Below are positions 862 to 63,664 of a DNA stretch of 64,000 nucleotides, piece after piece (the first letter of the stretch is position 1; every line of letters starts with the position of its first letter). The stretch spans positions 259 through 64,258 of IMG/VR virus record IMGVR_UViG_3300003322_000628. One strand, written 5' to 3'. The position numbers were made by a program, and so were the translations under genes. The notes beneath the pieces were generated by a model. That model saw nothing but the letters and a program-made list of their open reading frames with translations. It had not been told where the DNA came from and ran no database searches. This DNA is from a virus. Its lineage: Duplodnaviria; Caudoviricetes.

Positions 862-875
862 TTGCTAACTAGCAA
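862..875. repeat. palindrome TTGCTA-AC-TAGCAA abutting RBS
   Basis: TTTGCTAACTAGCAAA then GGAG, ATG at 887. Confidence 0.9.
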
Positions 876-886
876 AGGAGATAAAA

Positions 887-1237
887 ATGAATAAGTGTGA
901 CTTGGAAGAAATGAGGCAAGTTGCCATTGAAGCTTTTTTGAAGGAAGCAGAAAAGCCGTGGAAGAGAGATGGAAGCAGGTTTGTACGCGGTCGCATGCAG
1001 CTCACTGTGCACAAGCACGAGCGCGCCTATCTTGATGTTGGGCGCGAGTACATAGGCCCCCTTACAGGGGCAGCTCTAAAGGCAGCGCTAGCACTCTGCG
1101 CCAAAGTTGAGCAAGAGTACAGAGAAAGAGAGCTTCGCAAACGTTGCGAGGATTTGCAAACAGCCCTGTTCGGAAACGCGTTTACGCGTGCGTGGAGACG
1201 CGTAAAACACTGGCTTTGGTGCATCGTTACGGAGTAA
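887..1237 (+). CDS. hypothetical protein
   Basis: AAGGAG RBS, 116 aa. Confidence 0.7.
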   Translation: MNKCDLEEMRQVAIEAFLKEAEKPWKRDGSRFVRGRMQLTVHKHERAYLDVGREYIGPLTGAALKAALALCAKVEQEYRERELRKRCEDLQTALFGNAFTRAWRRVKHWLWCIVTE

Positions 1238-1488
1238 TGCCCATGTACTTCATGATGAAGCCCGTTTTCTGTCCTCTCACGCATCGCTATTGCGGAATGC
1301 AGCGCACTGGCAAGCCCATTAAGGACGGAAGCGTCGTGGCTAAGCTTCTTAAGAGGCTTGCAAAGAAATTCTCAGGGCCTCAAGTGCCTTACGCTGTTGA
1401 TGAGCATAACGTAATTGTGGCCTATCCCCCAACGCCGTCTATTCCGGATGGCTTTTTTGCTAAGGAGCAAACGTATGAAGCAGCGTAA
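1237..1488 (+). CDS. hypothetical protein
   Basis: TAATG coupling at 1237. Confidence 0.5.
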   Translation: MPMYFMMKPVFCPLTHRYCGMQRTGKPIKDGSVVAKLLKRLAKKFSGPQVPYAVDEHNVIVAYPPTPSIPDGFFAKEQTYEAA

Positions 1489-1825
1489 AACGGGTGTGCC
1501 GTACAAGAGTACGAAGGAAGGCGTGGAAGAGCACTATTTCCACATCCGCGTTCCTGTGGAAGTGGATGGTGAAGTTGTTTCGCACAAAAGCGTCGGCACG
1601 GTGTTCATGCGGCGAGAGCATCCAGATGCTCCTATGTTCGCTTCCGTTGCCCGCGTGTCCAAGGGCGATAATTTCAGTAGGTCACAGGGCCGCTCCATCG
1701 CTCGCCGCAAGTGGTTTGACGGAATCGAAGCCGAGGACATTGAAAGCGAAGCGCGCATTGCCGCCGTCTTAACACCTACATTCGAGGAAGCAGAGCGCAT
1801 CTTCCATGACAGGAGTGTCAAGTGA
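1475..1825 (+). CDS. conserved phage hypothetical protein
   Basis: AAGGAG RBS inside a degenerate palindrome copy (1457-1470); AxxSxxDNFSRxxGRxIA motif. Confidence 0.65.
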   Translation: MKQRKTGVPYKSTKEGVEEHYFHIRVPVEVDGEVVSHKSVGTVFMRREHPDAPMFASVARVSKGDNFSRSQGRSIARRKWFDGIEAEDIESEARIAAVLTPTFEEAERIFHDRSVK

Positions 1826-2211
1826 TGAACGAACAACTACAAAACACCGTGAATGAAATCCTGCAAAAAGCCATTGCAGGCGCTACGCAGGCCGGGGAGT
1901 TTCTGAAGGATCAGATTCCTGACGTTGTTCAACAGCTTTTGACGTGGAAGCTGACCGAAAGTGCTGTCGAAGGAGTGGGCTGTGTTGTTGGCGTTGTGGC
2001 GCTGGGCATTGCTTACAAAAAGTTTTGCAAATTGATTGCACGCATGGACACTGACTATTTTGCGAGGAGCCTAGCCGGCGCCTTCAGCGGTGGAGGCGTA
2101 GTCGTTTTGTCTGTTGCATCCCTTTCAAATCTACTCGAAGTTCTCAAGATTTGGCTCGCTCCGAAGGTGTGGCTGCTTGAATACGCTGCCAGCCTTGTGA
2201 AGGGCCACTAA
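1822..2211 (+). CDS. membrane protein
   Basis: two hydrophobic segments; C-terminal IWLAPKVWLLEYAASL. Confidence 0.7.
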   Translation: MMNEQLQNTVNEILQKAIAGATQAGEFLKDQIPDVVQQLLTWKLTESAVEGVGCVVGVVALGIAYKKFCKLIARMDTDYFARSLAGAFSGGGVVVLSVASLSNLLEVLKIWLAPKVWLLEYAASLVKGH

Positions 2212-2212
2212 C

Positions 2213-2587
2213 ATGGCCACTGCAAGCCGAGAGCAAATCGAGCAAGTTGCCCGAGAACTGGCCGCCTGCCAGCGCTATACCGACCAGTATGTTGCTGCTG
2301 GTGCGACCGTGGAACAGCAGCAGTATTATGCTACATGTACGCTAAAGCTCCATCCAATTCCATACAACGGTAGAACAGACGCGGAAATAAGGCATGATGT
2401 GCAGGCGTTTCTGCTGATTGGACTTGTAGGAGCGGCCTTAGGGGCCTTTATCGACAGGGAATTCTTCAAAGAGAAGTATTGGGGCCTTAATATGCTCGCT
2501 GCAGCCCTTGGCTTTTTCTTGTTTCCCCTGAGCTTAGCCCTTATCGCACTATTGTGCTACTTTATCAAGTGGGTTGTGGTTGGCTAA
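2213..2587 (+). CDS. membrane protein
   Basis: two C-terminal hydrophobic helices. Confidence 0.6.
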   Translation: MATASREQIEQVARELAACQRYTDQYVAAGATVEQQQYYATCTLKLHPIPYNGRTDAEIRHDVQAFLLIGLVGAALGAFIDREFFKEKYWGLNMLAAALGFFLFPLSLALIALLCYFIKWVVVG

Positions 2588-2596
2588 GGAGTAGAC

Positions 2597-3244
2597 ATGT
2601 ACGGCAAACTTCCTGACGTTTTGGGCCGCTATCACGTCGATGTGCGTGAAGTGATGTACTATCTCTACCTGCCTATCTCCTTGGCGGGCTCCAATCAAAT
2701 TGCGCTGCCTCCACAGCTCCTGCCTTTCTCGGAGCTTGTTGGCGCGTGTCGTATTGATGAGCCGGAACGCTTCCGTGATGAGAACGTGTATGTCACGATT
2801 AAGCGTATGTTTGTTGGCGGCGGTGTTACGCCCAATCGTCCGGGCTGGCACGCTGACGGCTTCCTCACCAGCGATTTGAATTACGTTTGGTACGACTGCG
2901 TACCGACGGTGTTCAACAACAGCAAATTCGTGATTGCTCCCGACCATATCGAGAGCTTGCGGCAGTTTGCTGAGCAGGCGTTGCCGGAGAACAACGTCGT
3001 CTATCCAAACGAGACGTTGCTTAAGCTGGACAGTCATGTCGTACACGCTGTGGGCGAAGCCGTTGAACAGCAGATGCGCACGTTCTTCAAGCTGAGCATT
3101 TCTCCGGACAAGTACAACCTCAAGGACAACTCACACAACTATCTGCTTGATTATCATTGGCAGATGTTCGATCGGGCTAAGGTGAGGAACAGCCCCCAGC
3201 ACGCGCAGAAAGACAGCGCTCCAGAGGACGACCACTTCAAGTAA
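2597..3244 (+). CDS. putative 2OG-Fe(II) dioxygenase-like protein
   Basis: PGWHADG (HxD), distal H (VVHAV) and RTF; AAGGAG RBS. Confidence 0.65.
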   Translation: MYGKLPDVLGRYHVDVREVMYYLYLPISLAGSNQIALPPQLLPFSELVGACRIDEPERFRDENVYVTIKRMFVGGGVTPNRPGWHADGFLTSDLNYVWYDCVPTVFNNSKFVIAPDHIESLRQFAEQALPENNVVYPNETLLKLDSHVVHAVGEAVEQQMRTFFKLSISPDKYNLKDNSHNYLLDYHWQMFDRAKVRNSPQHAQKDSAPEDDHFK

Positions 3245-3250
3245 TACCAC

Positions 3251-3327
3251 GCGCCCGTAGCTCAGCTGGATAGAGCACGAGCCTTCTAAGCTTGTGGTCG
3301 GGGGTTCGAGTCCCTCCGGGCGTGCCA
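3251..3327 (+). tRNA. tRNA-Arg(UCU)
   Basis: cloverleaf; loop CTTCTAA; GTTCGAGTCC; encoded CCA. Confidence 0.95.
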
Positions 3328-3331
3328 ATTT

Positions 3332-3345
3332 TTGCTAACTAGCAA
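3332..3345. repeat. palindrome TTGCTA-AC-TAGCAA between tRNAs
   Basis: perfect copy in the tRNA spacer. Confidence 0.9.
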
Positions 3346-3352
3346 CGAACAA

Positions 3353-3428
3353 GGGCGTGTAGCTCAAAGGTTAGAGCAGGCGACTCATAATCGCTTGGTT
3401 GCAGGTTCGACCCCTGCCGCGCCCACCA
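3353..3428 (+). tRNA. tRNA-Ile2(CAU), lysidine-type (less likely elongator Met)
   Basis: anticodon arm GGCGA-CTCATAA-TCGCT as in bacterial ileX; G1-C72 paired so not initiator; CCA end. Confidence 0.9.
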
Positions 3429-3446
3429 TGTTCAGGAGAACAGAAA

Positions 3447-3833
3447 ATGAAGTTTAAATTTGACGCGAATGGCCTAATAGAAGGCAAATACACTTTTGCT
3501 ATGCCTAAGGCGGCGCTCGCCAAATGGCTTAACGGACTTCGCAACAAAGGCTACAAGCAGGGCAGAGGTATGTTAGGGTGTGATAGCACTGGGTATTGCT
3601 GTCTGGGAGTTCTTGAAAAAGAACTAGATGGTTTTGTACGGTGCCCAGACGCCTCAAGATCGTCCCAAGACTTTTTTGAAAGACACGGCATCGAGACGGG
3701 CCCATATGAGAAGTGCAACCCCATGCTTGTGTTTGGCACGACAAGGTTCTCAGCTATTGCAGCTAATGACGCTAAAAATAAGAATTTTGCGCAGATTGCG
3801 GATGCGATCGAGCGCAGTTGCAAAGCCTACTGA
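3447..3833 (+). CDS. conserved phage hypothetical protein (CCLGV family)
   Basis: AGGAG RBS; WLxGLRxxGYKQGRGxL...CCLGV...ND..NFAQIADAIE. Confidence 0.7.
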   Translation: MKFKFDANGLIEGKYTFAMPKAALAKWLNGLRNKGYKQGRGMLGCDSTGYCCLGVLEKELDGFVRCPDASRSSQDFFERHGIETGPYEKCNPMLVFGTTRFSAIAANDAKNKNFAQIADAIERSCKAY

Positions 3834-3849
3834 TAGGAGAATAGCATGA

Positions 3850-4086
3850 ATGAATAGCTATCTGGATTACAGCAACGCGAGTGGCTTCGCTGTTGGGGAT
3901 AGGGTAAGGATTACTCGCATAGCGAGCAGCTACGAAGGTGGTTGGGCTGCTCCTTGGGGGCAGGCTATGGACGCGATGGTAGAGGACACTGTTTACACTA
4001 TCGACAGGGCGGATTCTGGGCAAGGCTTCCGAATGCAGGGTAGTAGGTATACGTTCCCTTTCTTTGTGCTTGAACATGCGGACTAA
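3850..4086 (+). CDS. hypothetical SH3/KOW-like protein
   Basis: FAVGDRVRI motif; AGGAG upstream. Confidence 0.55.
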   Translation: MNSYLDYSNASGFAVGDRVRITRIASSYEGGWAAPWGQAMDAMVEDTVYTIDRADSGQGFRMQGSRYTFPFFVLEHAD

Positions 4087-4384
4087 ACAGCGCATCGAAG
4101 CATTCGCGTATGACAAGCGCGGACGTTTGCTTGCCATAGGACACAATTCCTACACCAAAACACATCCCCTGCAGAAGCGTTATGCTGCAAAAACAGGCAA
4201 GCCGGACAGGATTTTTCTGCATGCCGAAACTGTAGCGCTACTGAAGGCTAGTAAGCGCGGTAAGGTGTACAGGCTTGTGGTTAAGCGCTACGGTAAGAAA
4301 GGGCAGGAATTGTTGGCAGCACCTTGCGAATGCTGCAGAGAAGCTATACAGCAGTTTGACGTGAAAGTGGTACAGCACACTTAG
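4076..4384 (+). CDS. cytidine/dCMP deaminase-like Zn protein
   Basis: HAE and PCECC motifs; N-terminal GHN. Confidence 0.8.
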   Translation: MRTKQRIEAFAYDKRGRLLAIGHNSYTKTHPLQKRYAAKTGKPDRIFLHAETVALLKASKRGKVYRLVVKRYGKKGQELLAAPCECCREAIQQFDVKVVQHT

Positions 4385-4401
4385 ACCTATGAGGTTTGAA
4401 C

Positions 4402-4713
4402 ATGAAAACAACGGCTGAAAAGATTGCTGTAATGCAGGCATATGAAGATGGCAAGACGATTCAGGTCAGCATGCGTGGGTTCGCATCGGGCGTAACGCCG
4501 TGTGAATTGTCGAAAAAGTCTGTAAAAAACCCTCTTTGGGACTGGGAGACTTACGACTACAACATCAAGAAAGAGCCGCGTACGTTCTACGTAAACGAAT
4601 ACAAAGACGGAAGCTTTGGTGCGGCACACTCATCTGCTGACCGGGCCGCTATTATTCTAGCTAACACATACTGTGGCGGCAGAACAATCAAGGTTGTGGA
4701 AGTATTGGACTAG
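4402..4713 (+). CDS. phage hypothetical protein (GKxIQ/YxIKxEPR family)
   Basis: similar to 7377..7661. Confidence 0.65.
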   Translation: MKTTAEKIAVMQAYEDGKTIQVSMRGFASGVTPCELSKKSVKNPLWDWETYDYNIKKEPRTFYVNEYKDGSFGAAHSSADRAAIILANTYCGGRTIKVVEVLD

Positions 4714-5029
4714 CCATGCTAGAGCAAGACGTGGCTGCGTTTGCCAAAGCTGTGCTTTGCGGGGCCAATCCCGAAGATTGCAAGCCTATTCTCGAAGGCT
4801 ACGACTTTAAATCCAAGCAAGGCGCATATACGTGCGCCGAATGCAGGGCTCGCATTTCCATGCCCATGAGGGAGACAGGCTGACATGACGTACAAGCAGG
4901 CGCGAGCGCGGCAGAAGCTGCATAAGCTGTACGACAGCAAAAACAAGCAGGAGGAAGAGCCCGCCTATTTTCCTGTTGTTGTGTGGACGTTGTTGTTCAG
5001 CTCCATCATGTTCTTCGTATTCATCTGCA

Positions 5030-5043
5030 TTGCTAAGTAGCAA
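5030..5043. repeat. palindrome TTGCTA-AG-TAGCAA abutting RBS
   Basis: followed by AGGAG and ATG 5054. Confidence 0.9.
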
Positions 5044-5053
5044 AGGAGAAAGC

Positions 5054-5329
5054 ATGAAAGCTCTTACGTTTGGCGAAATCCCCGTCGGCACCACGTTCCG
5101 CGCCCTGCGCAATGATGTAATTGGTCGCGGCCCTGAGGCGCGCATCGTAAACAACAATGGCATCTACACGAAAGTTGGCTCTCAGGTGGCTGTGGACGTG
5201 AGTCACGGCAACAAGGAGTGTATTTTCTTGTTGGGCATGCCTGTGCGCGAAATCAAGACGGTTATGCATATCGATTACAAATCTCTCGAAGCTTACAAAG
5301 TGAGCCAGAAGGGGAGGGTTGCTGCGTGA
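5054..5329 (+). CDS. hypothetical protein
   Basis: AAGGAG RBS; LTFGEIPVGTTF start. Confidence 0.65.
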   Translation: MKALTFGEIPVGTTFRALRNDVIGRGPEARIVNNNGIYTKVGSQVAVDVSHGNKECIFLLGMPVREIKTVMHIDYKSLEAYKVSQKGRVAA

Positions 5330-5748
5330 GAATTGGGTCTCTTGTAAAAATCGGAGAGGCAGAGCATTTTATCTCTGTTGATCTTGGTTTGTGGTCGTGC
5401 TACTGCGGAGGCGTAATTGTAAACTCCCAAGCAAAGTTTCCTAGCAGTCCAAGCTACGCTCATGTGTTTGAGACTTATGGGATTAAAGATCGCACCGTCC
5501 GTACGGCTGAGGAGTTTGGAAAGTGGCTTGTCGAACAGGCAGCAGAAAAATCCTTGTGTGCAATAGCCATGCCCTCGCATTGGGAAATTTCCCAATGCCT
5601 ACTAAAAGCTCCCTCTGCGTGGGAAAGCGAGGGCTACAAGTACACGGCATACAGACACGGCCCATTCCGTAATTTGAATTACGACCATTCCGGACAGACG
5701 GGAACTCAGATGATTGCAATGATGGTGGTGAAGGAGAAAATTCCGTGA
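5326..5748 (+). CDS. hypothetical protein, CCG/NxxS family paralogue 1
   Basis: GTG start coupled to the upstream TGA; CYCGG and FRNLNY motifs. Confidence 0.6.
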   Translation: MRIGSLVKIGEAEHFISVDLGLWSCYCGGVIVNSQAKFPSSPSYAHVFETYGIKDRTVRTAEEFGKWLVEQAAEKSLCAIAMPSHWEISQCLLKAPSAWESEGYKYTAYRHGPFRNLNYDHSGQTGTQMIAMMVVKEKIP

Positions 5749-6173
5749 GGGTTGTGGCTAATGATTCTCAGGGCACCAAGTATGCGTGGGAGTTTTACGT
5801 CTACGGAGTAGAAGGCTTTTGTGGTGGGAACGTACTGTGCATGCTGCGATGTTTTGTGCTAACGAAGCGCGATCGCCCAGAAAGTAGTGGAGACGTGAAT
5901 TTGCTAGAAGCAATTCTAGACAGCTACACGAGCGGAATGCAGCTCCAGATTAATGACAACGAAGGGGGTATGTGGTGGACCCATCTATTCCCTCTGGTTC
6001 CTAAGGAAGGGGAACTGCGCCGTAACGAGTGCACCTACTATTTTGTGTTTTCAGCCGAAACTCGCAATCCAAATTCAGGAAATGTCTGTAAGACATTGAT
6101 TATTTCCTGCGAGCCCGATAATTTCGTCGATCCTGAAGATGACGACGAATATTACGACGACGAGGACTATTGA
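5745..6173 (+). CDS. hypothetical protein, CCG/NxxS family paralogue 2
   Basis: GFCGG and RNPNSGNVC; acidic tail. Confidence 0.65.
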   Translation: MRVVANDSQGTKYAWEFYVYGVEGFCGGNVLCMLRCFVLTKRDRPESSGDVNLLEAILDSYTSGMQLQINDNEGGMWWTHLFPLVPKEGELRRNECTYYFVFSAETRNPNSGNVCKTLIISCEPDNFVDPEDDDEYYDDEDY

Positions 6174-6580
6174 TGTTCTACTGGAAGGAAGGCAAACGAT
6201 GGAAAAGCTTTGACTTCAGTTGTCTCGGCAGCATTCCTTCTTGCTGCGGAATTGAAGATGTTGGTGAATTTTATGCTCAAACGTGGAGCACGGAAAAGAA
6301 AGCCGTGGGCGACGACTGGATCGACCGAGAAAAAATTACTAAGAGAGCCCTATTCAAAGAGCTTGTAAAGGAATGCTTGCGTAGGGGCTCTATCATCATG
6401 GCAGATAGGAAAGGCGGGGATGCGGATAGAGTTTTATTTCCTCTCGCGCCTAAGAGAGCTTTCTTTCTTACGGATGCCGGAGTAAAGTGGAAATGCAAAG
6501 CTCATTTGTCCGACTACTACCACAATAGCAACAGTGGCGCTCGCATCCGGCATTGCATTGTGACGATGGAGAAAGCATGA
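6170..6580 (+). CDS. hypothetical protein, CCG/NxxS family paralogue 3
   Basis: PSCCGI and HNSNSGARI. Confidence 0.65.
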   Translation: MMFYWKEGKRWKSFDFSCLGSIPSCCGIEDVGEFYAQTWSTEKKAVGDDWIDREKITKRALFKELVKECLRRGSIIMADRKGGDADRVLFPLAPKRAFFLTDAGVKWKCKAHLSDYYHNSNSGARIRHCIVTMEKA

Positions 6581-7380
6581 GAGTTACAATCGTAACGAAC
6601 GGCCCTAGCAATAGCGCTCGCAATCTGCAGGCGGCCTTGCGCTTGCGAGGAGGGGAAGCTTCACGTGCACGGCCAACGTCGCGCCTGTCTTGCCGCGGCA
6701 CTCGATATGTAATAAACCTCGGAGTATCGGCCGCGCTAGGTTTTCAGCAGAGGCGTTTGCTAGTTAGCAACTCACAAGAGGGAGTACGCAACTGCCAAGA
6801 TAAGCGCCTTACGTTCGATGCTCTTCGTAGAGCCAGCGTATCTTCGCTGGAGTGGGGGGAAACGCAAGAAGGGGCTGTTGCGACGTGGCTAGAGCGCGAC
6901 GGTAAAGTTGTTGTGCGTCACACAGCGACAGGCCACAGCGGAGCAGGAATTCAAATCGTGCGTAAAGGAGAGCAGATTCCAGTTGCGCCTTTATATACGC
7001 GCTACTTCAAGAAGCAGGCGGAATACCGCGTGCATGTAGCGTTTGGTAATGTTATTCTTATCCAGCAAAAGAGGAAGCGAAATGGTGTTGAGCAAGAAAA
7101 TGAACAATCTTTGGTACGCACTCATGCAAATGGATGGGTGTTCTCTACACAGGCTCTCTCTTGTAACGAGCGTGGCTATCGTGACAATCTCTGTGCTCTT
7201 GGTATTGCCGCTGCTAATGCGATAAGGGCTGCACATTGCGCTGTAGATATTCTCGTAAGCCACGAGAACGGAAACAACATGGTGGTGTGCGAAATCAATT
7301 CCGCACCAGCGCTGGAAGCCAATAGCACGCTAGCTGCATACACAGATGCATTCATTAACGAAATGAGGAAATACGCGTGA
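6577..7380 (+). CDS. ATP-grasp ligase (phiEco32/LUZ24-type)
   Basis: DKRLTF, GHSGAGI loop, EYRVHV, AVDIL...VCEINSAPAL. Confidence 0.9.
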   Translation: MRVTIVTNGPSNSARNLQAALRLRGGEASRARPTSRLSCRGTRYVINLGVSAALGFQQRRLLVSNSQEGVRNCQDKRLTFDALRRASVSSLEWGETQEGAVATWLERDGKVVVRHTATGHSGAGIQIVRKGEQIPVAPLYTRYFKKQAEYRVHVAFGNVILIQQKRKRNGVEQENEQSLVRTHANGWVFSTQALSCNERGYRDNLCALGIAAANAIRAAHCAVDILVSHENGNNMVVCEINSAPALEANSTLAAYTDAFINEMRKYA

Positions 7381-7661
7381 ACAAAGACAATGCCCATCTC
7401 TATCTGCCTCTCGTGAAGGCTCTCGCTGAAGGTAAGGTTATTCAATACCAGACAAGCATTGGGACATGGCTAGATGTTACAGATGTATCTTTCGGGGTGG
7501 GTCATTATCATTATAGAGTCAAACCAGAGCCTCGCGTTCGATGGGCTGTATACGATGAGAACGGGGAATTCCGCGTAGGTTCGCACGATAAGAAGTTGAT
7601 CGAAGGTATGCAACGGCCTAAGGACACTATGGCGAAGTTTGTAGAAGAACTGGAGGGCTGA
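7377..7661 (+). CDS. phage hypothetical protein (GKxIQ/YRVKPEPR family)
   Basis: similar to 4402..4713. Confidence 0.65.
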   Translation: MNKDNAHLYLPLVKALAEGKVIQYQTSIGTWLDVTDVSFGVGHYHYRVKPEPRVRWAVYDENGEFRVGSHDKKLIEGMQRPKDTMAKFVEELEG

Positions 7662-8104
7662 TGGAGCCCCTGATTGTTGTATTCCAGTACACAGCCAATG
7701 GCGTTAAGGTTGCGGAATGGGCGTGGCTTAAGAAAAAGAAAGATGCTATTCCTGTAGCTAGAAGTAAGAGGCCAGAAGGCTCTGCACTGCAGGCTGTGTG
7801 GACATGCGCGTGGCGCAGTGCTCCTTCGCATTACGAGCTGGCGTACGGCTATGTTACTGAGGAAAATCAGCGAGGACCCTTCAAGGACATTGCGGCTAGC
7901 ATCCGAGACAAACATCTGCGCAAGCCCAAGGACAACAAATGGACTAGAGCTGCTAAGAAAATCCTAGCCGATGCAATAGCTCCCGCTTCAACGCAGCTGG
8001 TTATTCCTCGGGAGCCGCCTAAGGAAGCTCCCAAGCCAAAACCCAAAGCCAAGCTTTGGAATCCCTATTACATTTACGAGGCCCAGAAACGTGCAGCTCA
8101 TTAA
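7661..8104 (+). CDS. hypothetical protein
   Basis: coupled ORF, GGAGG RBS. Confidence 0.6.
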   Translation: MEPLIVVFQYTANGVKVAEWAWLKKKKDAIPVARSKRPEGSALQAVWTCAWRSAPSHYELAYGYVTEENQRGPFKDIAASIRDKHLRKPKDNKWTRAAKKILADAIAPASTQLVIPREPPKEAPKPKPKAKLWNPYYIYEAQKRAAH

Positions 8105-8954
8105 GGTTGGTGCTGATCCGGAAGTTGGCATCTACAATACCGCCAAAGGCATTGTCGTCCCGGGATGCGGTAAGATTCCCGGCACCAAAGCCAAGCCACA
8201 CCCCGTTCCAAACTCAAAGATCGGTCTCAAGATTCAGGAGGACGGAGTTAGTTTGGAGTACAACTTCGATCCTGTTCCAGTGAAGGACTTCTATCGGCGC
8301 GCCTTGGACGCTGCAGCTGGCGTGCGGAAAATGGTTAGTGCGCTATTCGGCCCAGACTATGACTGGTGGATTGGTGATGGCCACACGTTCGACATGAAGC
8401 AGCTGCTTCCACATCCGCAAGCTATGTGCTTCGGGTGCGACCCAGACTATCTCGCGCATCGCCGAGGGGAAATGAGGATGCCTCTGGACGCTAACGATTT
8501 GGGAGGCAATCGCTTCTTCGCGGGCCACATCCACATCGGATACGACAGGAAGTCGTGCCTCGTTCCGGACTGGGCGATTGTGCAGGGCATGGAAGCTCTG
8601 GCGTACACGCATCTGGCCTGCCTTGGATATGACGACCAGCCTAACAGGCGCAAGTATTACGGCATTCCGGGCCTGTTCCGGCCCAAGAGCTATGGCTTGG
8701 AATACCGGACACCCTCCAACTTCTGGGTGCATCAGCCACAGCATGTGTCTACGCTGATTTCCACGGCAGAGCACATCATCAACAAGCCTGCAAAGTTTCA
8801 GGAAATCTACCGACGCATCAACTTCGATGATGTGGTGGGGTATATCAACGATCCGCGCAAGCGAGGTACGGAAGTGTTTGTTGACAGCATGGGCGATTTG
8901 CGAGACGAGCTTTTTGCGGCTCCTGAGGAGAACATCGATGGTGAGGAAAAGTAA
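8091..8954 (+). CDS. phiEco32-like COOH-NH2 ligase type 2
   Basis: VGADPE, EDGVSLEYN, FGCDPDY, GHIHIGY, RRKYYG.PG.FRPKSYGLEYRTPSNFW. Confidence 0.9.
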   Translation: MQLIKVGADPEVGIYNTAKGIVVPGCGKIPGTKAKPHPVPNSKIGLKIQEDGVSLEYNFDPVPVKDFYRRALDAAAGVRKMVSALFGPDYDWWIGDGHTFDMKQLLPHPQAMCFGCDPDYLAHRRGEMRMPLDANDLGGNRFFAGHIHIGYDRKSCLVPDWAIVQGMEALAYTHLACLGYDDQPNRRKYYGIPGLFRPKSYGLEYRTPSNFWVHQPQHVSTLISTAEHIINKPAKFQEIYRRINFDDVVGYINDPRKRGTEVFVDSMGDLRDELFAAPEENIDGEEK

Positions 8955-9571
8955 TGCACCACTACAGTAGGGATGATTTTATTTCGTACTATGGAGGCAG
9001 CTTCCTGCTCAGTCCATCCACCAATAAGGTGGTAAGAGTTTTGCAGGGCGATCCAGCCAGAGAGTCCCACGTCATTCTGACGGATAAGAGCAGCGTCCAT
9101 CTGCGAGACTTGGACTGGAAGCATGTCAAGACTCCGCAGCTCGGCTTTCGTACGCTGGAGAATGGACGCCTGCTCTACTACGTACAGAGGCGTGCGGTGC
9201 GCGAGCGCCAGAAGGGCGTAACCCCTGTGGCCATTGTCATTGACATTCCGGGCATCATGACTTCTATTGCTCAGGAGCTTGGCTATTCTCAGGACGTTGC
9301 TCGTCTAGCCCAGCTCAATGACAAGCTGGCAGAGGCTATTTTCCATCCCGAGTTTGTGTCGATGGAAGATGCGCTGGAATTGCTAGCTAGCAAACGACAT
9401 GCTGTAGCATTCGCGCTGTCTCCTGATTGGGCAATCACGCTCGGCCTGCATTCGGACAAGCGCTATCTGCTGCATTACAAGAATCGTCGAGCAGGTCATT
9501 CCGTCGATGGGAAGAAGTGGGCATTCAATGACAGCGATGTAGAATACATCTTCAATAGGAGCAAGCTATGA
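8954..9571 (+). CDS. hypothetical protein in the amidoligase cluster
   Basis: 205 aa, translationally coupled on both sides. Confidence 0.75.
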   Translation: MHHYSRDDFISYYGGSFLLSPSTNKVVRVLQGDPARESHVILTDKSSVHLRDLDWKHVKTPQLGFRTLENGRLLYYVQRRAVRERQKGVTPVAIVIDIPGIMTSIAQELGYSQDVARLAQLNDKLAEAIFHPEFVSMEDALELLASKRHAVAFALSPDWAITLGLHSDKRYLLHYKNRRAGHSVDGKKWAFNDSDVEYIFNRSKL

Positions 9572-11408: not shown

Positions 11409-11430
11409 TTCAATTTAAGGAGAACGTGCC

Positions 11431-13649: not shown

Positions 13650-13651
13650 CA

Positions 13652-13955
13652 ATGCCTTCCTTAAAGAAACGCCCCAAAAAAAGTTGAGGCTCTGACGTGG
13701 GCCTCTAAGGGAAAGTGTTTTTATTGTGGACAATTTATGGGAACGAGGGCCACATGGGACCATTTCCTTCCAGTTGTTAGAGGACACAGCCATAGACTGA
13801 ACATCGTGCTGGCATGCAAGAAATGCAATTGTCGTAAAGGCCATCGTAGGCCCAGCCCAAAGCAAAGGGAGAAGTTTATCTACTTCACCCACGCTTACAT
13901 AGCCCACCGCCTTTCCACTCTTTCTGGTGCAGAGCAGCCAAAGGATATCGCGTAA
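13652..13955 (+). pseudogene. HNH endonuclease (McrA-like) with frameshift in an A7 run
   Basis: CFYC...TWDHFLP...NIVLACKKCNCRKG is in a different frame from ATG 13652; A7 at 13676-13682. Confidence 0.55.
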
Positions 13956-58330: not shown

Positions 58331-58762
58331 ATTGATTCCTTAGATTGTCAATGTCTTCGTCTGCTCCGAGATTACAGACCTGTTTCTTTTGGGCGTAGCT
58401 TGGGCTAATGACGCTCTAGCTAGCGCTGCTATACGCTAGAGCTAAAGCCACGTTCGTGTTTGCCTATTCTAGCCAAACCCTCACTAGAGCTGTGAGCCTA
58501 ATATATACATTAGCTCTTTAGCTTTGCGTTACACTGTCAGCCTATCACTAGGCTTTTGTCTCATCTACCCCTACCTACTATCAGGAAATGGCTTTTAGGA
58601 AAAACCACCACAAACCTCGCCACACTATCGCTAGCAAATTCATAGCTCAGTGGGTATTAGGCCGGACTTAACCGGGTTCCTGTTTTGCATGTATGGCCCC
58701 AGCTCTGAAAGGGCCGGTAGCGATAGACGTCTTTACAAGCTCACCCTCTGGGTGACATAACC

Positions 58763-58792
58763 TTAGACAATCGGGTGTATGCTAAAAGTTCC
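58763..58792 (-). promoter_or_regulatory. candidate late promoter GGAACTT...ATTGTCTAAG
   Basis: matches the 59450-59478 element; points at late genes. Confidence 0.5.
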
Positions 58793-58949
58793 CCAACTTG
58801 TCCCTGTAGGCCTTCAGTAGCTCGGCTCGCCAGTAGGCTAGCCTGTCCTTGAGGCTCATTTCCTTCAGAAAGGCTTCCCTGTCCTCAGGCTCCATTCTCT
58901 CTACCTTCTCCCTAAGATAGCGCATCCTATCGTATTTCTGTTCCCTCAC
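58782..58949 (-). CDS. small charged helical protein (55 aa)
   Basis: GTG start coupled to the stop of 58946..59413. Confidence 0.5.
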   Translation of the reverse strand: MREQKYDRMRYLREKVERMEPEDREAFLKEMSLKDRLAYWRAELLKAYRDKLGNF

Positions 58950-59413
58950 AGCTTCCTTCCATCTGCTACAACCCGTCCCTCATACATTATGACAATATTA
59001 TCTAGCTTCCAAGGCTGGTTGTCGTCTATTCTCCACATCCTCACTTGCTGGGGTCTCAGGGCAAAAGCTCTAATTTCCACCCCTCCGGGTAGGCTGATAT
59101 ACCCAGCTGCTCTCCATAGCCTTCTCCATTCATCTCTCGTTAAGTTCCATTCTACGGCTTTTGTGCCTCTGGCTGCCCTTCTCTTGGCCCTAGCCCTATA
59201 GGCATTAGCCATATGTGTATATGCCCCGTCAATCGTCCTCATCCAGCGTTTAGAGACCGCTGCATGCTTTACCCTATCCCTCCCTACCCTCTTCCTCGGA
59301 CGAGGCTCCTGCGGCTTCCTACGAAGCCTGACGGGCTTCTTAATTACATCCCCTCTGTCTTTTATTTGCTTAATAATTGTCTCAATGGTTTGAGACTCGC
59401 TATCAATTTCCAT
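58946..59413 (-). CDS. basic degenerate HNH-like DNA-binding protein
   Basis: AKRR...EWNLTRDEW..LW...M.RIDD..PW..DNI; no catalytic His visible. Confidence 0.6.
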   Translation of the reverse strand: MEIDSESQTIETIIKQIKDRGDVIKKPVRLRRKPQEPRPRKRVGRDRVKHAAVSKRWMRTIDGAYTHMANAYRARAKRRAARGTKAVEWNLTRDEWRRLWRAAGYISLPGGVEIRAFALRPQQVRMWRIDDNQPWKLDNIVIMYEGRVVADGRKL

Positions 59414-59449
59414 ACGGTTCCATGTAAAAAATACTTTACATCCACCTTC

Positions 59450-59478
59450 TTAGACAATTATTTTCTCTATTTGTTCCC
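59450..59478 (-). promoter_or_regulatory. candidate late promoter GGGAAC-N17-GTCTAA
   Basis: 37 nt upstream of the first late-arm gene. Confidence 0.5.
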
Positions 59479-59818
59479 CTTCTCTACGCTGTTTTTGCTA
59501 TTTAGCATATTTATTTTGAGCGCTATAAAGTGAGCCGGAGCCCCACAGGCCGGCCGAGCATGGGACCCAATTCCAAGCTGCTACTGCCGGGGGCCAGATC
59601 GCATGGCTGTTTTTTTCTTTGCGTTCCCGGCCTGAACAGCGACGTTCACAGGCGATAGCCGAGTTTGCTAGCTAGCATGTGGGCCAAGGGCGAGGAAGGG
59701 CGAGCCCAAGCGTATAGCACACAGACAACAGGGGCAGCATGTAGGGGAATAGAGGGGTCTAGGCTTATACAGGCTATCGGCTCCGCCTGTATTGCGTCCC
59801 TGAGAGGGTAGGAATGTC

Positions 59819-59857
59819 TTAACACAATTTTAACAATTGCTTAACACTTTCTTAACA
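59819..59857. repeat. TTAACA x4 direct repeats, exact 11-bp period
   Basis: 59819, 59830, 59841, 59852. Confidence 0.85.
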
Positions 59858-59929
59858 ACCGATGTGGTATGCTGTGGAGGCTGGGCGAAATGCCCGGTGT
59901 GCGGTTGTTCCTTTACAATGTAAAGATGC

Positions 59930-59943
59930 TTGCTAGGTAGCAA
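59930..59943. repeat. palindrome TTGCTA-GG-TAGCAA just upstream of the early -35
   Basis: 7 nt before TTGACA. Confidence 0.9.
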
Positions 59944-59950
59944 CCGGCGC

Positions 59951-59978
59951 TTGACATGGCTTTGGGTTGTGCTATTCT
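59951..59978 (+). promoter_or_regulatory. sigma70 early promoter
   Basis: TTGACA-N16-TATTCT with TGn extension. Confidence 0.7.
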
Positions 59979-60026
59979 ATCCTTGCGCTGTGGGCATTCC
60001 GTCTACAGGCACTAGAGGATATTGAC

Positions 60027-60770
60027 ATGGCGAACAAGTTTGCGGAAATGGCGCTGGCTATCTCGCGCCTCACGAAGAATGCCGACCTCAAGGCGGCGGT
60101 CGATCAGGCCATTACGGGCAGCGTGTCCACGCTGGCTCTCAAGAAAGAAACGGACAGCGAGGCCAAGAGCCTGTGGAGTGCGTGGAACAAGGCGGCCAAC
60201 ATCGCTGCTGCCGACGGCTTTACGGCGTCGGACATGTCCAACCTGCTCGATATGCGCATCGCCGAACTCACGGACGGCGACGAGGGCAAGGCCAAGGCTC
60301 TGGCCACGTACAAGAGTCGCACCAGCACCCTCGTGCCGATCCTCGCCCTGCCGGATGCCGACTATGCCCAGCTCTGGGCAGAGGCGCATATCATGCGCGG
60401 CGACGAGCCGGCGCCGGTGTCGCGTGAATTCAACACGCAGGACGCTACCAAGCTTATCCGGGCTGCCAAGGGTAAGGACAACGCGGAACAAGCCGCATTC
60501 GAGGCCGCCTTCAAGCGGCTGTCGAAACTCATCCGCGATCAGGCCAAGCCGGGCGATCTGGAAGGCCTCAAGGCCGAAGAAAAGGCCGAAGCCCGCAAGG
60601 CCGCGTTCCGGTCGGCTACGCTTCTGTGTGACGAGCTGTTCACCTACGCCATGAATGGCGAGGAAGCGCCGGGAGAGGGCGGCGGAGAGCTGGACGACGA
60701 CGCAATCCACGCGCTCGTGGAACAGCACGACGCGGACGAGGCCATCGACCAGCAGGCTGCGGCCCTGTAA
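60027..60770 (+). CDS. first early protein, helical with acidic tail
   Basis: GAGGA RBS, ATG 60027; high-GC3 codons; own promoter and terminator. Confidence 0.8.
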   Translation: MANKFAEMALAISRLTKNADLKAAVDQAITGSVSTLALKKETDSEAKSLWSAWNKAANIAAADGFTASDMSNLLDMRIAELTDGDEGKAKALATYKSRTSTLVPILALPDADYAQLWAEAHIMRGDEPAPVSREFNTQDATKLIRAAKGKDNAEQAAFEAAFKRLSKLIRDQAKPGDLEGLKAEEKAEARKAAFRSATLLCDELFTYAMNGEEAPGEGGGELDDDAIHALVEQHDADEAIDQQAAAL

Positions 60771-60794
60771 TCAGAGCTAGCAGGCATCTAGAAC

Positions 60795-60820
60795 AGGCCC
60801 CCTCTTGCGAGGGGGCCTTT
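60795..60820 (+). terminator. intrinsic terminator
   Basis: AGGCCCCCTC-TTGC-GAGGGGGCCT-TT. Confidence 0.65.
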
Positions 60821-60840
60821 AGGCTTAGGTAGGGGGCACG

Positions 60841-61077
60841 ATGAACATAGACACAAGCCGCCTGCGCGCTGATTGTGCCCACGGGCGAGCCGAGCGCTTA
60901 GGCAGGGAACAGGCCCTAAAGGATATTGACAAGCTTGGCTTTGGCATTGCCTACAATCAAAGCCAAGTGTTAGATGGCGGCATGCGATTTCTTGACCCCG
61001 CGGCGTATTTCATGGCGGGATACAGGCAGGCCGTGCTAGGGTATTGGCTGGCCGGGCTTGTCGAAACCAAACGCTAG
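60841..61077 (+). CDS. hypothetical early protein
   Basis: AGGGGG RBS. Confidence 0.55.
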   Translation: MNIDTSRLRADCAHGRAERLGREQALKDIDKLGFGIAYNQSQVLDGGMRFLDPAAYFMAGYRQAVLGYWLAGLVETKR

Positions 61078-61108
61078 CTTTTGCTAGTTAGCAAAGAGGA
61101 TTTCAGCC

Positions 61109-61315
61109 ATGAAGGCAGTAGTAGGGAGGGATATGTTCTGCTACATTTTTAGCAGCGATTTGGGCAATTTCGCCGTGCTAGCCAGCAACACCGTATCGGG
61201 AGCCACGCTGCACGAACTGGCCAGTGTCTGTTTTGATAGGGTTTTGGGTGCCGGCACTAACGACAAATTCCACGGCCCGACTATGGCGTTGCCTGTTATT
61301 GGGGAAGTCAAATGA
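61109..61315 (+). CDS. hypothetical early protein
   Basis: palindrome + GAGGA RBS. Confidence 0.55.
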   Translation: MKAVVGRDMFCYIFSSDLGNFAVLASNTVSGATLHELASVCFDRVLGAGTNDKFHGPTMALPVIGEVK

Positions 61316-61383
61316 TGGCCCGAGGGCAGCGCACTGCGCGCCAAAGCCGACCAGTATGTTGCTAACTAGCAAAGGGGGATAAC

Positions 61384-61596
61384 ATGCGTACTCAATACAC
61401 AGTGCCAGCGCTCGGCTACTCCTTTCGGCAAGAGGCAGTGTGCTACGCGCGATCCGGCTCTTGCGTTGTGAGAGTGTACGACACTGGCGGCAATGAAATT
61501 GTGCAGCTGGGAAAATTCTGTGACAGAGTTGTTGCTGCAAGGCTTAAAAAGCTTGAAGTAGCGTGCCGCAACGACTTTGCTATGGGAGCACGCTGA
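61384..61596 (+). CDS. hypothetical early protein
   Basis: palindrome + GGGGGA RBS. Confidence 0.55.
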   Translation: MRTQYTVPALGYSFRQEAVCYARSGSCVVRVYDTGGNEIVQLGKFCDRVVAARLKKLEVACRNDFAMGAR

Positions 61597-61899
61597 AATG
61601 AAACCGCTGCGCGTGCAAATACAGGTGCGCCAACCCACGCAAGAGGCGTGGGAGAGAGCAAAGCAAAGCTTTGCGATCAATTGGAACGACGAATTTGCGC
61701 GATCCACAGCGAATCAAAAGATTCGAGAGGCCTTGGAGAAAGGCTATCGCGTCGATCTAATTCCAATTTCCAAATGAGCCGGCCAAGGCTCACAAATTAG
61801 CTACGAACGGCAGGCTTAGGCTTGCCGTGTTTTTGCGTTTCTGAAGAACAACAAAAAGCGTTTGCTAACTAGCAAACGCCCATCCTCTAGGGGAATCAA

Positions 61900-62103
61900 A
61901 TGCAACGCGACGTGTCCTGCGGCAAGCTGCGGGAAGGGATTGCTACAACTGGCTCAGCGCCAATGGGCAACCCCGGAAAGCGTTTCCATCTGCTAGAGAA
62001 AGCAGAGCTATTCAAGCCGGGCAGAATAAGCCTGCGCAAAAAGCGTAAGCGAAGTGATCAAAAGGCCGGGAAGATATTTACATACTCTTTCCGGCCTGCA
62101 TAA
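61900..62103 (+). CDS. small basic early protein
   Basis: AGGGGA RBS; RKKRKR. Confidence 0.5.
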   Translation: MQRDVSCGKLREGIATTGSAPMGNPGKRFHLLEKAELFKPGRISLRKKRKRSDQKAGKIFTYSFRPA

Positions 62104-62109
62104 AGAACG

Positions 62110-62134
62110 AGCCCGCCTCTGTGCGGGCTTTTTG
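62110..62134 (+). terminator. intrinsic terminator
   Basis: AGCCCGC-CTCTGT-GCGGGCT-TTTTG. Confidence 0.7.
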
Positions 62135-62168
62135 TTGGCCTATCTTTGCTAACTAGCAAAGGAGACGT

Positions 62169-62438
62169 ATGTCAGCTCAGTGCGCAGAGTACAAAAACAA
62201 TGCCCGCACCTTGCGCCGAACGGCACAAAAACAAATTCAGCAGGCTCTGCTGGATGATCGTGACGAAACTCTAGCCATTTTGGAAGAGATGGCTAGAGCG
62301 GACGCCTTTTTGGATCAATTCGATGATAATTGGTTCGGCTATGATGCTCCAATGGAATATCCGGAAGAGTATCTGGAATACTACGATCCGTATGCTGATG
62401 AGCCTATGGATATGTATGAGTATGACCCTTGGTATTGA
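62169..62438 (+). CDS. acidic, Tyr-rich early protein
   Basis: palindrome + AAGGAG RBS; D/E/Y/P-rich C-terminal half. Confidence 0.7.
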   Translation: MSAQCAEYKNNARTLRRTAQKQIQQALLDDRDETLAILEEMARADAFLDQFDDNWFGYDAPMEYPEEYLEYYDPYADEPMDMYEYDPWY

Positions 62439-62849
62439 GGAAGAAGCATGAGCATCAAGAACAAGAAAACTGGTCCTACTCCGAACAAAGAGGAATGGCA
62501 GCATCTTGCGGACAAGCGCAGGCTTTCAGAAGCATGTGTTAGCTGCAGAATACTGCATAGATGCAGTATTCTGGATGCCATGTTTGCCGTCAAGCAATAC
62601 ATTCGCGTCATCAAATGAACTTCCACATCTTTCACAAATGGAGCGAGTGGTCAAGTGTACTGTGGTCAGCGAGATACGGCCAAGTGCAACGTCGGTACTG
62701 CTCTGTCTGCAATAAATGTCACGAGCGTCTAGTATGAAAATCCAAGAGGCTCTGGATATTCTTGACGAAGCTTGTAGCCAGCGAGTGCGTCGATTCGCCA
62801 ATCTGTATTTTGTCCTGCTCGCGTATCCTCCACAAAATAGGGAGGCTAT

Positions 62850-63032
62850 ATGTTTCCTCTTGTGCACCCTGAAGCACAACACAATGCCTCGCTAGCTGAG
62901 CGAGACAAGGCGCTGTTTAACATGTTCTTCGATGATTTGCACGATTATGAGGCTGCCTTTGGCGCCCTGCACGAATTGCACATCGCGAAGAAAAGATTTG
63001 ACACGGAAACCGTAGGGACTAGCCATGCCTGA
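62850..63032 (+). CDS. hypothetical early protein
   Basis: GGAGG RBS. Confidence 0.55.
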   Translation: MFPLVHPEAQHNASLAERDKALFNMFFDDLHDYEAAFGALHELHIAKKRFDTETVGTSHA

Positions 63033-63264
63033 TTTCATGCAGTATACGAACGAACCCACACTTGATTTTCACTCGCAGCATGTTCTAAGCGAGTACGGAC
63101 AGTTCTATTCCTGCACGGATGATTTCAAGTTCTTAGCTAAGCTGCGAGCTGGCAAAGCTAAGATAAAGGAAATTGATGCTTGGTTTGAGGCAAATGAAAA
63201 CCGTCAAGTTTCTTATTTGGCTCAGGGTATTTTAGCGTCTGTATACGGAATTGATCCTCCATAG
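63025..63264 (+). CDS. hypothetical early protein
   Basis: overlaps the upstream stop. Confidence 0.55.
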   Translation: MPDFMQYTNEPTLDFHSQHVLSEYGQFYSCTDDFKFLAKLRAGKAKIKEIDAWFEANENRQVSYLAQGILASVYGIDPP

Positions 63265-63664
63265 TTGCTAGTTAGCAAACGGAGAATGTAATGAAAGTGA
63301 GTGCTCGCATCCTGCTTTCGTTTTTCTCGGCGTATGCCTTTTGCCTCGACCTGATTGCATTGGGCATATTTCTTTTGGTGTTGATGCTCATTAACGAGGC
63401 CGACTATGGCTGATTTGTTTCTGCTGATTGCTGTTGTTGTAGGCGCCGGCGTGCTGCTTTCTGTGCTTGTCCATTGGTACGATGCAGAGCCGGAACAGAA
63501 AAGTACGGAAGAGGAGTGGTTTGTATGAGAGCTTTTTACGCTATGGCTTTCTATCTCATCTGTTTGGCTGTGTCTGTATATCACGTCTCCACCAATCCCG
63601 CTCTTGCTACATGGTGGCTGGTGTTGGGGTTTTCTTTCCGTGAAGAGTGGCTGAGGGACAGAAC

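Follow-up and report, generated by a model that had tools for sequence, protein, structure and literature searches.

The stoperators of L5, a Cluster A mycobacteriophage, comprise more than 20 sites, 13-mers that lie at promoters and within short spaces between genes, where binding of the repressor gp71 stops both the initiation and the elongation of transcription. As described in the sections of PMC9283540 devoted to them, these sites are asymmetric and monomer-bound, their orientation follows transcription and is required, and they serve prophage immunity. An array with similarities to these sites is built from the palindromic word TTGCTANNTAGCAA (TTGCTA-NN-TAGCAA) in a virus of the Caudoviricetes, IMG/VR record IMGVR_UViG_3300003322_000628. 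The stretch analyzed here, henceforth the window, has 64,000 nucleotides and corresponds to bases 259–64258 of the 64,258-bp record, which is rated complete; it is a complete 64-kb podophage of soil, lytic in appearance. Like the L5 stoperators, the 20 copies in the window are mostly intergenic on the arm of early and middle genes, and one flanks a promoter. In contrast to L5, the site is a perfect palindrome, the orientation of its center is mixed at gene-proximal copies, and neither lysogeny genes nor a repressor were found among the Pfam and PHROG families listed for 105 open reading frames (ORFs; the best 25 of 33 Pfam and 25 of 87 PHROG families, with many ORFs being orphans). By analogy, the array appears to work most like L5 stoperators, yet it fails their defining asymmetry and lysogeny context.

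The passages of PMC4496689 on phage N4 describe three promoters with a GC-rich heptamer centered at −11, a 3-nt loop, and a start 5 nt past the stem. The window resembles N4 in that inverted repeats mark early units in a podophage with a giant, cysteine-free, probably ejected protein. An N4-gp56-type capsid protein is annotated for the relative vB_Pun_Y3, and N4-like phages are among the capsid matches. In contrast to N4, there are 15–20 copies over 16–25 kb, the center of 2 nt allows a loop of 2 or 4 nt, the arms consist of A and T alone in the related phages DES1 and StenR_269, and the giant protein bears no detectable likeness to N4 gp50; moreover, the N4 geometry would start transcripts past the Shine–Dalgarno sequence here. 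Unlike T7, the window has no single-subunit RNA polymerase gene as judged from the Pfam families listed and the ORF sizes on the plus arm. The middle and late promoters of phiEco32 harbor the element AATGTA at −11.5, which, in the account given in the promoter part of PMC12276001, is read by the phage sigma factor gp36 together with gp79. The window shares with phiEco32 a short, single, lineage-specific element near gene starts, an amidoligase/COOH-NH2 ligase module, and a related terminase. However, the phiEco32 element is asymmetric and read by a recognizable sigma homologue, whereas the element described here is symmetric and no sigma factor was found.

KorA and KorB of plasmid RK2 and C1 of phage P1 act at a dozen or more operators scattered over the replicon, some of them far from promoters or in genes; the KorA and KorB sites are 12–13-bp palindromes. 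The window is similar in carrying many copies of one operator-like word over a replicon. It differs in that the RK2 and P1 sets belong to plasmids or a temperate phage, have known repressors, and show neither a stop–motif–Shine–Dalgarno grammar nor tRNA flanking. The PeSL cassettes of T4-like phages combine a sigma70 early promoter with a variable stem-loop; they are repeated, flank small early genes, and are associated with gene shuffling. The window likewise has a repeated intergenic signal at whose borders genes come and go. In contrast to PeSL, the shared element is only a 14–16-bp palindrome, no promoter hexamers accompany it, and the upstream flanks are unrelated. To our knowledge, the word is not the site of any known regulator.

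The word occurs in 15 perfect and 5 one-mismatch copies, whereas dinucleotide-preserving shuffles predict 0.01 and 0.31, respectively; the observed counts were reached in 0 of 100 shuffles. Tolerating two mismatches adds just 2 sites (56407 and 61175) against 4.0 expected, and the motif family is therefore sharply bounded and all-or-none. The mismatch falls on the outermost base (1 or 14) in four of the five one-mismatch copies, and the core TGCTA-NN-TAGCA is unbroken in 19 of 20. The perfect copies harbor the center dinucleotides AC (five), GT (three), AG, CT, and GC (two each), and GG (one). A weak 16-bp extension is formed by T at −1 and A at +1, each present in 13 of 20 copies, and the flanks have nothing in common past ~16 bp. 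The copies are located as follows.

862–875: perfect copy with center AC, after the stop codon of gene 493–858 and 3 nt; followed by AGGAG and ATG 887
1457–1470: one-mismatch copy (T9>G) inside the 3′ end of gene 1243–1488
3332–3345: perfect copy between tRNA genes, in the order tRNA-Arg(tct) 3251–3327, 4 nt, motif, 7 nt, tRNA-Met 3353–3428
5030–5043: perfect copy whose right-arm TAG is the stop codon of gene 4885–5040; followed by AGGAG and ATG 5054
6757–6770: perfect copy within gene 6577–7380, which is kept in all four relatives; reads LLVSN, where the orthologues carry different residues
9380–9393: perfect copy within gene 8954–9571; reads LLASK at a variable position
11193–11206: perfect copy within gene 10296–11408; reads LLLSK at a variable position
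14252–14265: one-mismatch copy (T1>G) within gene 13955–14509
18330–18343: one-mismatch copy (A14>T) in the 420-nt gap 18043–18462
31896–31909: perfect copy with 9-bp arms, in the gap where the arms converge (plus arm ends at 31805, minus arm at 31971)
38018–38031: perfect copy within the 1849-aa virion gene 35104–40653 (minus strand)
43077–43090: perfect copy within gene 42413–43285 (minus strand); reads LLASN
59495–59508: one-mismatch copy (A14>T) 81 nt away from where the first minus-arm gene starts (59413), within the divergent control region
59665–59678: one-mismatch copy (A14>T) in the control region
59930–59943: perfect copy upstream of the sigma70-like early promoter, with 7 nt between its end and the −35 hexamer
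61081–61094: perfect copy, after the stop codon of gene 60841–61077 and 3 nt; followed by AGAGG and ATG 61109
61359–61372: perfect copy followed by AGGGGG and ATG 61384
61862–61875: perfect copy with 10-bp arms, ahead of ATG 61900
62146–62159: perfect copy followed by AGGAG and ATG 62169
63265–63278: perfect copy immediately 3′ of the stop codon of gene 63025–63264; followed by ACGGAG and ATG 63291

The segment from 59495 across the record join to 11206 contains 15 of the 20 copies, and 12 of the 15 perfect copies fall within 15.3 kb, or 24% of the window (binomial P = 7e-6). On the early/middle arm, 13 of 18 copies reside in the 10% of the DNA that is non-coding (P = 5e-10), and throughout the window 9 of 20 end 4–24 nt ahead of a start codon or tRNA gene. 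At 1457, directly preceded by a terminator-like hairpin (1434–1452), the mismatch removes an in-frame TAG and provides AAGGAG for the ATG at 1475. The initial annotation, made from the letters of the window, had listed these 20 copies as far above chance, with fixed arms around a variable center and a concentration of 15 copies from the control region through the join to 11.2 kb. All of this is borne out: the coordinates are correct, and 15 copies have exact 6-bp arms around centers that comprise six different dinucleotides. Its description also holds for the six perfect copies that run into a Shine–Dalgarno sequence (862, 5030, 61081, 61359, 62146, and 63265), the AAGGAG created at 1457, the copy 7 nt upstream of the early −35 hexamer (59930, ahead of TTGACA at 59951), and the copy flanked by tRNA-Arg and tRNA-Met (3332). 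In contrast, the term “genome-wide” was overstated, as the motif is essentially limited to one arm.

The number of perfect copies within coding sequences, given as six in the initial annotation, is reduced to five that lie fully inside genes (6757, 9380, 11193, 38018, and 43077); by the gene calls made here, 31896 lies in the gap at the arm convergence and 5030 overlaps the upstream stop codon. These five copies all use the sole open frame. The LLxS(K/N) peptide that had been pointed out does occur, but it carries no weight as independent evidence because the reading is forced, the other frames holding TAG or TAA. In 3 of 4 comparable genes, the orthologue residues (uncultured relatives G004 and G005, and DES1 and StenR_269) differ from the in-gene motif; at 43077, G005 has LLAGN versus LLASN in the window. 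Thus, the word is written over tolerant protein positions, and the sequence comparison indicates that selection acts on the nucleic acid.

The closest named relatives of the window are Xanthomonas phage DES1 and Stenotrophomonas phage StenR_269, the latter growing on Stenotrophomonas rhizophila, a soil bacterium that is not a pathogen. Their terminases are 46% and 41% identical to that of the window and their capsid proteins 48% and 45%, respectively, while the two capsid proteins share 58% identity with each other. The TTGCTA word is absent from both phages, even with one mismatch allowed. A de novo palindrome count reveals that both carry a gap-2 palindrome of their own, TTTAAYRTTAAA. StenR_269 has 11 copies of TTTAANNTTAAA versus 0.00 expected, and DES1 has 15 copies of this sister motif versus 0.20 expected in one 41-kb stretch, with 20 in the whole record. 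In StenR_269, a G precedes the word in 9 of 11 copies and a C follows it in those without an adjoining Shine–Dalgarno sequence, which makes the full site 14 bp long as well, GTTTAA-CG-TTAAAC.

The placement of the sister motif parallels that of the word in the window. The early/middle arm carries every copy in StenR_269 (11) and 17 of 20 in DES1; many lie between a stop codon and a Shine–Dalgarno sequence (e.g., StenR_269 13827 and 24567; DES1 12299, 21949, 24509, and 24931). The StenR_269 copy at 159, near the left end, is 25 nt upstream of TTGACG and parallels the window copy at 59930. Transfer RNA genes are flanked as well, in StenR_269 as motif, 6 nt, tRNA-Gln and as tRNA-Arg, 2 nt, motif, and in DES1 as motif, 4 nt, tRNA-Arg. 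The early block of StenR_269 (273–3360) comprises 12 genes without an internal copy, the first internal copy being at 3558. A terminator is followed by the motif at StenR_269 24536, and a hairpin with a T run comes within ~5 nt after the motif at StenR_269 4473 and DES1 2481. The three phages therefore use the same grammar with a different word per lineage: early/middle arm, stop–motif–Shine–Dalgarno order, tRNA adjacency, and a promoter-proximal copy. The array is a dispersed single-word regulatory array, and what is new here is that DES1 and StenR_269 have their own word. tRNA-Arg(tct) adjoins a motif copy in all three motif-bearing phages (window 3251–3327; L199 8622–8698; L085 11653–11728).

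Contigs of four soil-metagenome runs align to 59000–64000 at 80–99% identity in a mosaic fashion; among the runs listed as containing the phage, there was none of RNA. Gene 63025–63264 is absent from one run, where the endpoint of the deletion coincides with the first base of copy 63265. In another, the same gene is swapped for 36 letters holding TTGCTAACTAGCAA and then AAAGGA, a replacement that keeps the word with an inverted center (AC versus GT) ahead of the same downstream gene, at 63291. One run lacks gene 61109–61315 from 9 nt past copy 61081. The word thus serves the whole lineage, with early genes turning over at its borders. The uncultured relatives G004 and G005 are syntenic with the window and have a capsid protein 71% identical to that of the window. 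Neither has an over-represented palindrome, and no common word is apparent upstream of the ribosome-binding sites inspected in G005. Among related phages, the soil-metagenome relatives carry the word, and DES1, StenR_269, G004, and G005 are without it. The first ~500 bases of G005 (L218 and L220) recur nearly identically ~58.8 kb further on, at the other end and within the giant gene, so the assembly is probably circularly permuted and overlaps at its termini.

Database scans brought up no additional relative with the word. The 16-bp form matched at least 111 stretches in IMG/VR, and those listed have a single site each; the word followed by AGGAG gave 0 matches in IMG/VR. JGI metagenomes yielded 35 stretches unrelated to the window, and a scan of bacterial genomes for the word followed by AGGAG yielded 16 stretches, each with a single scattered site. 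For the StenR-type word followed by GGA, 19 IMG/VR stretches were found, 17 with one site and 2 with two. A full-text literature search on the motif strings yielded nothing on phages or bacterial regulation. vB_Pun_Y3, selected for its related capsid protein, was rejected as a motif carrier, having a lambdoid layout and no such motif. The Rollin record, also with a related capsid protein, contains runs of N. In L234, an unrelated low-GC phage-like metagenome contig, three paralogous upstream regions within 7280–8572 end in TTGCTATATAGCAA; they consist of a promoter-like TTTACA...CATAAA followed by (T/G)TGCTATATAGCAA and AGGAGG, which is the classic operator position. Pfam identified no regulator in ten ORFs near these sites. 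L226, another unrelated metagenome contig, has three tandem TTTGCTACGTAGCAAA-type palindromes with a 23-bp period at 2253–2315, which resemble iterons or a centromere-type site.

The window is organized in two convergent arms. The plus arm runs from the early promoter over the record join to 31.8 kb and encodes small orphan early proteins, a phiEco32-like amidoligase/GATase/COOH-NH2 ligase cluster, a primase, a DnaB-like helicase, DNA polymerase A, ribonucleotide reductase, RNA ligase, and exonucleases. The minus arm harbors the structural genes, from 59.4 kb down to 32 kb. The transcription signals at the head of the plus arm are the following.

59951–59978, plus strand: sigma70-like early promoter, TTGACA-16-TATTCT with TG, 10 of 12 matches
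60796–60817, plus strand: strong GC-rich terminator-like hairpin directly after the first early gene; no motif follows
61807–61828, plus strand: intrinsic-terminator-like hairpin of 9 pairs and a T run, 33 nt before motif 61862
62109–62130, plus strand: intrinsic-terminator-like hairpin of 8 pairs and a T run, 15 nt before motif 62146

This promoter is the one strong sigma70-like site in 58500–64000, and none was detected adjoining any copy in 1–12000. It is followed by two motif-free genes, 60027–60770 and 60841–61077. Since the hairpin at 60796–60817 precedes the second gene, its expression would depend on read-through. Three of the four strong early terminators have a motif copy within 4–33 nt downstream. 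In an Rfam scan at the gathering score, the four tRNA genes alone matched, and the motif matched no family.

The search for a protein that reads the word yielded no candidate with a DNA-binding signature. RNA polymerases, sigma factors, helix-turn-helix and ribbon-helix-helix proteins are absent from the families listed, as are integrases and repressors. Targeted scans of ~40 ORFs at relaxed thresholds added no polymerase, sigma factor, DNA-binding family, integrase, or repressor. On the plus arm, there is no unassigned ORF above 450 aa and no RNA polymerase among the Pfam families listed (E-value to 1e-5). The suggestion that the copies are parS/matS-like loading sites finds no support, as a ParB-like gene is absent from the families listed, and none of the four candidate binders named in the initial annotation (60027–60770, 58946–59413, 61900–62103, and 27101–27268) has a DNA-binding signature. 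ORFs 58946–59413 and 61900–62103 have no family match, and 27101–27268 matches phrog_16759, a family of unknown function. ORF 61598–61777 (59 aa, pI 10) was considered as a ribbon-helix-helix protein and rejected: it has no homologue but itself, no Pfam or PDB sequence match, and no usable match in the protein atlas, and its AlphaFold model (pLDDT 85) is beta-alpha-beta-alpha-beta with no PDB fold at E ≤ 0.001.

Neither a sigma factor role nor DNA binding is supported for the first early protein, P0001 (60027–60770), which is acidic (pI 4.7), belongs to a small orphan family with 9 representatives, and has no relative in JGI metagenomes. Its model is all-helical (pLDDT 76), with no PDB match at E ≤ 0.001 and no sigma factor fold. 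StenR_269 ORF 3759–4469 has a weak, non-significant likeness to P0001 (E = 0.18, two methods). The StenR_269 “DNA binding protein” and its DES1 homologue are actually MazG-like pyrophosphohydrolases. Apart from HNH endonucleases, no protein is common to the motif-bearing phages yet absent from G004 and G005.

The 1849-aa virion protein encoded by 35104–40653 (minus strand) has no PHROG, Pfam, or PDB sequence match and no similarity to N4 gp50 by BLASTP or by a 4-sequence HMM, although it is cysteine-free, as is N4 gp50. An HExxH motif is conserved in its family, being HEGTH near residue 697 in the window, HEAQH in DES1, HEVQH in StenR_269, and HEGDH in G004. Judged by its sequence, the protein resembles an RNA polymerase less than it does a multi-domain protein that is ejected and contains a metallopeptidase. 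The label “putative vRNAP” of the StenR_269 homologue rests, in the annotation given in PMC10747016, only on size, lack of cysteine, and helical content.

Several observations favor a symmetric double-stranded DNA site: the intergenic bias, the imposition of the word on coding sequence, the weak RNA fold of the sister motif, the promoter-proximal copies, and the fixed arms. The site for a dimeric DNA-binding protein proposed in the initial annotation is further consistent with the exact arms around a free center, the inverted center in a soil relative, and the AT-rich sister motif. We infer that the word acts as double-stranded DNA, that its reader is a dimer encoded by the phage, and that the effect is repressive. 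It is tentatively hypothesized that a two-fold symmetric protein reads the site and limits host RNA polymerase in a stoperator-like manner. The reader would most likely be a putative phage-encoded homodimer, and the sites would be set at cistron and tRNA boundaries on the arm that host RNA polymerase transcribes first, one flanking the early promoter and one at the convergent-arm junction (31896). Once accumulated, the reader would occupy these sites and limit host RNA polymerase at the early promoter, while occupied sites between cistrons would act as elongation roadblocks. Early and middle transcription would thereby be shut down or partitioned, as by the mycobacteriophage stoperators.

The symmetry, the promoter-proximal copy, the copy at 31896, the placement in short intergenic spaces, the lack of an identified phage polymerase, and the L5 precedent make such an operator array the favored reading, plausible though short of probable. 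For the early shut-off array proposed initially, the mycobacteriophage stoperators (PMC9283540) provide a real precedent; it is challenged by a competing promoter-type layout. Several findings weigh against the operator array. No DNA-binding protein was identified, the candidates and ORF 61598–61777 being without a DNA-binding signature, and no integrase or repressor is among the families listed, such that prophage-silencing logic does not carry over directly. A roadblock after a terminator would be redundant, yet a copy follows three of the four strong early terminators. The copy-free immediate-early block (2 genes in the window, 12 in StenR_269) fits a promoter cascade better, and the distance of the promoter-proximal copy to the −35 hexamer varies (7 nt versus 25 nt). 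Finally, the closer relatives G004 and G005 are without such a palindrome, so the system must be dispensable or replaceable.

The earlier verdict that the word is a protein site “rather than a promoter” is not established, given the motif-free early block, the motif after three of four terminators, and its position 4–7 nt before tRNA genes. In a doubtful but serious alternative, the word is a factor-dependent middle promoter at which an immediate-early factor or an ejected virion protein starts transcription at the 3′ edge of the motif. On the same doubtful footing, messenger RNAs would begin at the Shine–Dalgarno sequence, tRNA precursors would have 4–7-nt leaders, and the factor would be a very divergent sigma-like or recruiting protein. 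The order of the cascade in the window and StenR_269 (sigma70-like promoter, motif-free immediate-early genes, motif-preceded units) agrees with this scheme, as do the nine of 20 copies that end shortly before a start codon or tRNA, the motif 4–7 nt upstream of tRNA genes in all three phages, the terminator-then-motif order at 61807, 62109, 1434, and StenR_269 24536, and the A directly after the motif in 13 of 20 copies. The all-or-none conservation resembles that of phage-polymerase promoters, such as the −17 to +6 region of T7 in the promoter comparison of PMC4496689, and phiEco32, which shares the amidoligase module, has one short element, positioned at −11.5, that is recognized by the sigma factor of the phage (PMC12276001, promoter part). 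A left arm working like a −10 element would place the transcription start on the final base of the word, which would explain the abutting Shine–Dalgarno sequence. However, perfect palindromes with a free center are not known as a promoter class, and gene-proximal copies have centers of mixed orientation. The families listed and the targeted scans include no RNA polymerase or sigma factor, neither N4 vRNAP nor any PDB chain detectably resembles the giant virion protein, and the all-helical P0001 model matches no sigma factor fold. Host sigma70 geometry is too large for the 9–14 nt between motif and start codons, the motif precedes the terminator at StenR_269 4473 and DES1 2481, and five copies lie deep within genes. 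It is unlikely, though conceivable, that the words are symmetric start signals of a new kind, shared by podophages with N4-type capsids and read by machinery that no current profile recognizes. In that unlikely event, their reader would belong among the immediate-early proteins, with the P0001 family as an example, or would be a portion of the giant ejected protein; each transcript would start exactly at the Shine–Dalgarno sequence or 4–7 nt before a tRNA, and word and reader would have co-evolved per lineage. The operator array and middle promoters remain close as readings.

A signal at the RNA level is improbable. It would be an operator or cleavage site 5′ of the ribosome-binding site, serving a translational repressor or an endoribonuclease; in the latter, equally improbable form, polycistronic early RNA would be cut into units. 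T4 RegA, a phage translational repressor, provides a model. Six perfect copies abut a Shine–Dalgarno sequence and the 1457 copy contains one, tRNA flanks would suit a processing site, and the window copies could form 5–10-bp hairpins of −3.4 to −8.7 kcal/mol. However, the StenR_269 copies of the sister motif are unstable as RNA (0 to −2.3 kcal/mol), the arm sequence is invariant beyond pairing with no compensatory variants among the copies, the copies upstream of the early promoter are probably untranscribed, the in-gene and arm-junction copies have no ribosome-binding site to control, and no Rfam family matches. Very improbable is a host protein whose operator the phage borrows, in which case the word would track the host rather than the phage lineage. 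DES1 and StenR_269, whose hosts belong to one family, do share a word despite 58% capsid identity, only HNH endonucleases are common to the motif-bearing phages and absent from G004 and G005, and the unrelated contigs L234 and L226 have TTGCTA-NN-TAGCAA in operator-like places; the single scattered sites in the 16 bacterial stretches and the literature search, which yielded no paper on phages or bacterial regulation, speak against it. Least probable among the readings considered is that the copies have no part in expression and serve recombination or nicking, as repeats for early-gene cassette exchange or as targets of HNH endonucleases. The copies are exact, the soil relatives lose or replace 63025–63264 and 61109–61315 with break points at or beside copies, and HNH endonuclease genes are the sole ones in the window and in DES1 or StenR_269 yet not in G004 and G005. 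Nonetheless, nothing is shared past ~16 bp, hence the copies are not those of a mobile element, and exchange at repeats is a possible by-product of any repeated signal. The in-gene copies in conserved enzymes and the stop–motif–Shine–Dalgarno grammar in three lineages imply a function in expression.

For most lytic phages other than the model systems, no regulatory code is known. The 14-bp word and its counterpart in the cultured phages DES1 and StenR_269 mark nearly every early and middle transcription unit, tRNA genes included, and their reader would govern how these phages, a proposed new family, pass from early to later gene expression. A sharply specific pair of reader and site would be a potential orthogonal regulatory part. 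If the copies are roadblocks, the stoperator principle would reach beyond temperate mycobacteriophages and take in lytic phages with Gram-negative hosts; if the copies are promoters, they would constitute the first symmetric promoter class.

The phiEco32-like cluster of ATP-grasp, COOH-NH2 ligase, amidoligase, and glutamine amidotransferase genes (6577–12831, plus strand) is kept in all relatives and harbors the in-gene copies 6757, 9380, and 11193, spaced 1.8–2.6 kb apart. The homologue of gene 10296–11408 is StenR_269 gene 12726–13826, which is annotated “amidoligase”. Further along the middle arm, metallophosphoesterase and RNA ligase genes (17116–17658 and 25530–26432, plus strand) occur alongside the four tRNA genes, a group that could be an RNA repair set.

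The divergent control region has additional features. Four TTAACA hexamers with an exact 11-bp period (59819, 59830, 59841, and 59852) occupy 59819–59857 and overlap a leftward promoter-like site at 59855–59827; iterons, an element for DNA bending, and another set of operators are candidate interpretations. On the plus strand, a promoter-like site at 59435–59464 (TTTACA-18-TATTTT) is separated from a hairpin with a T run at 59592–59608 by ~150 nt that contain no ORF and hold copy 59495, and the stretch 59435–59615 could encode a small RNA. From 59593 onward, the relatives diverge from or replace the sequence of the window.

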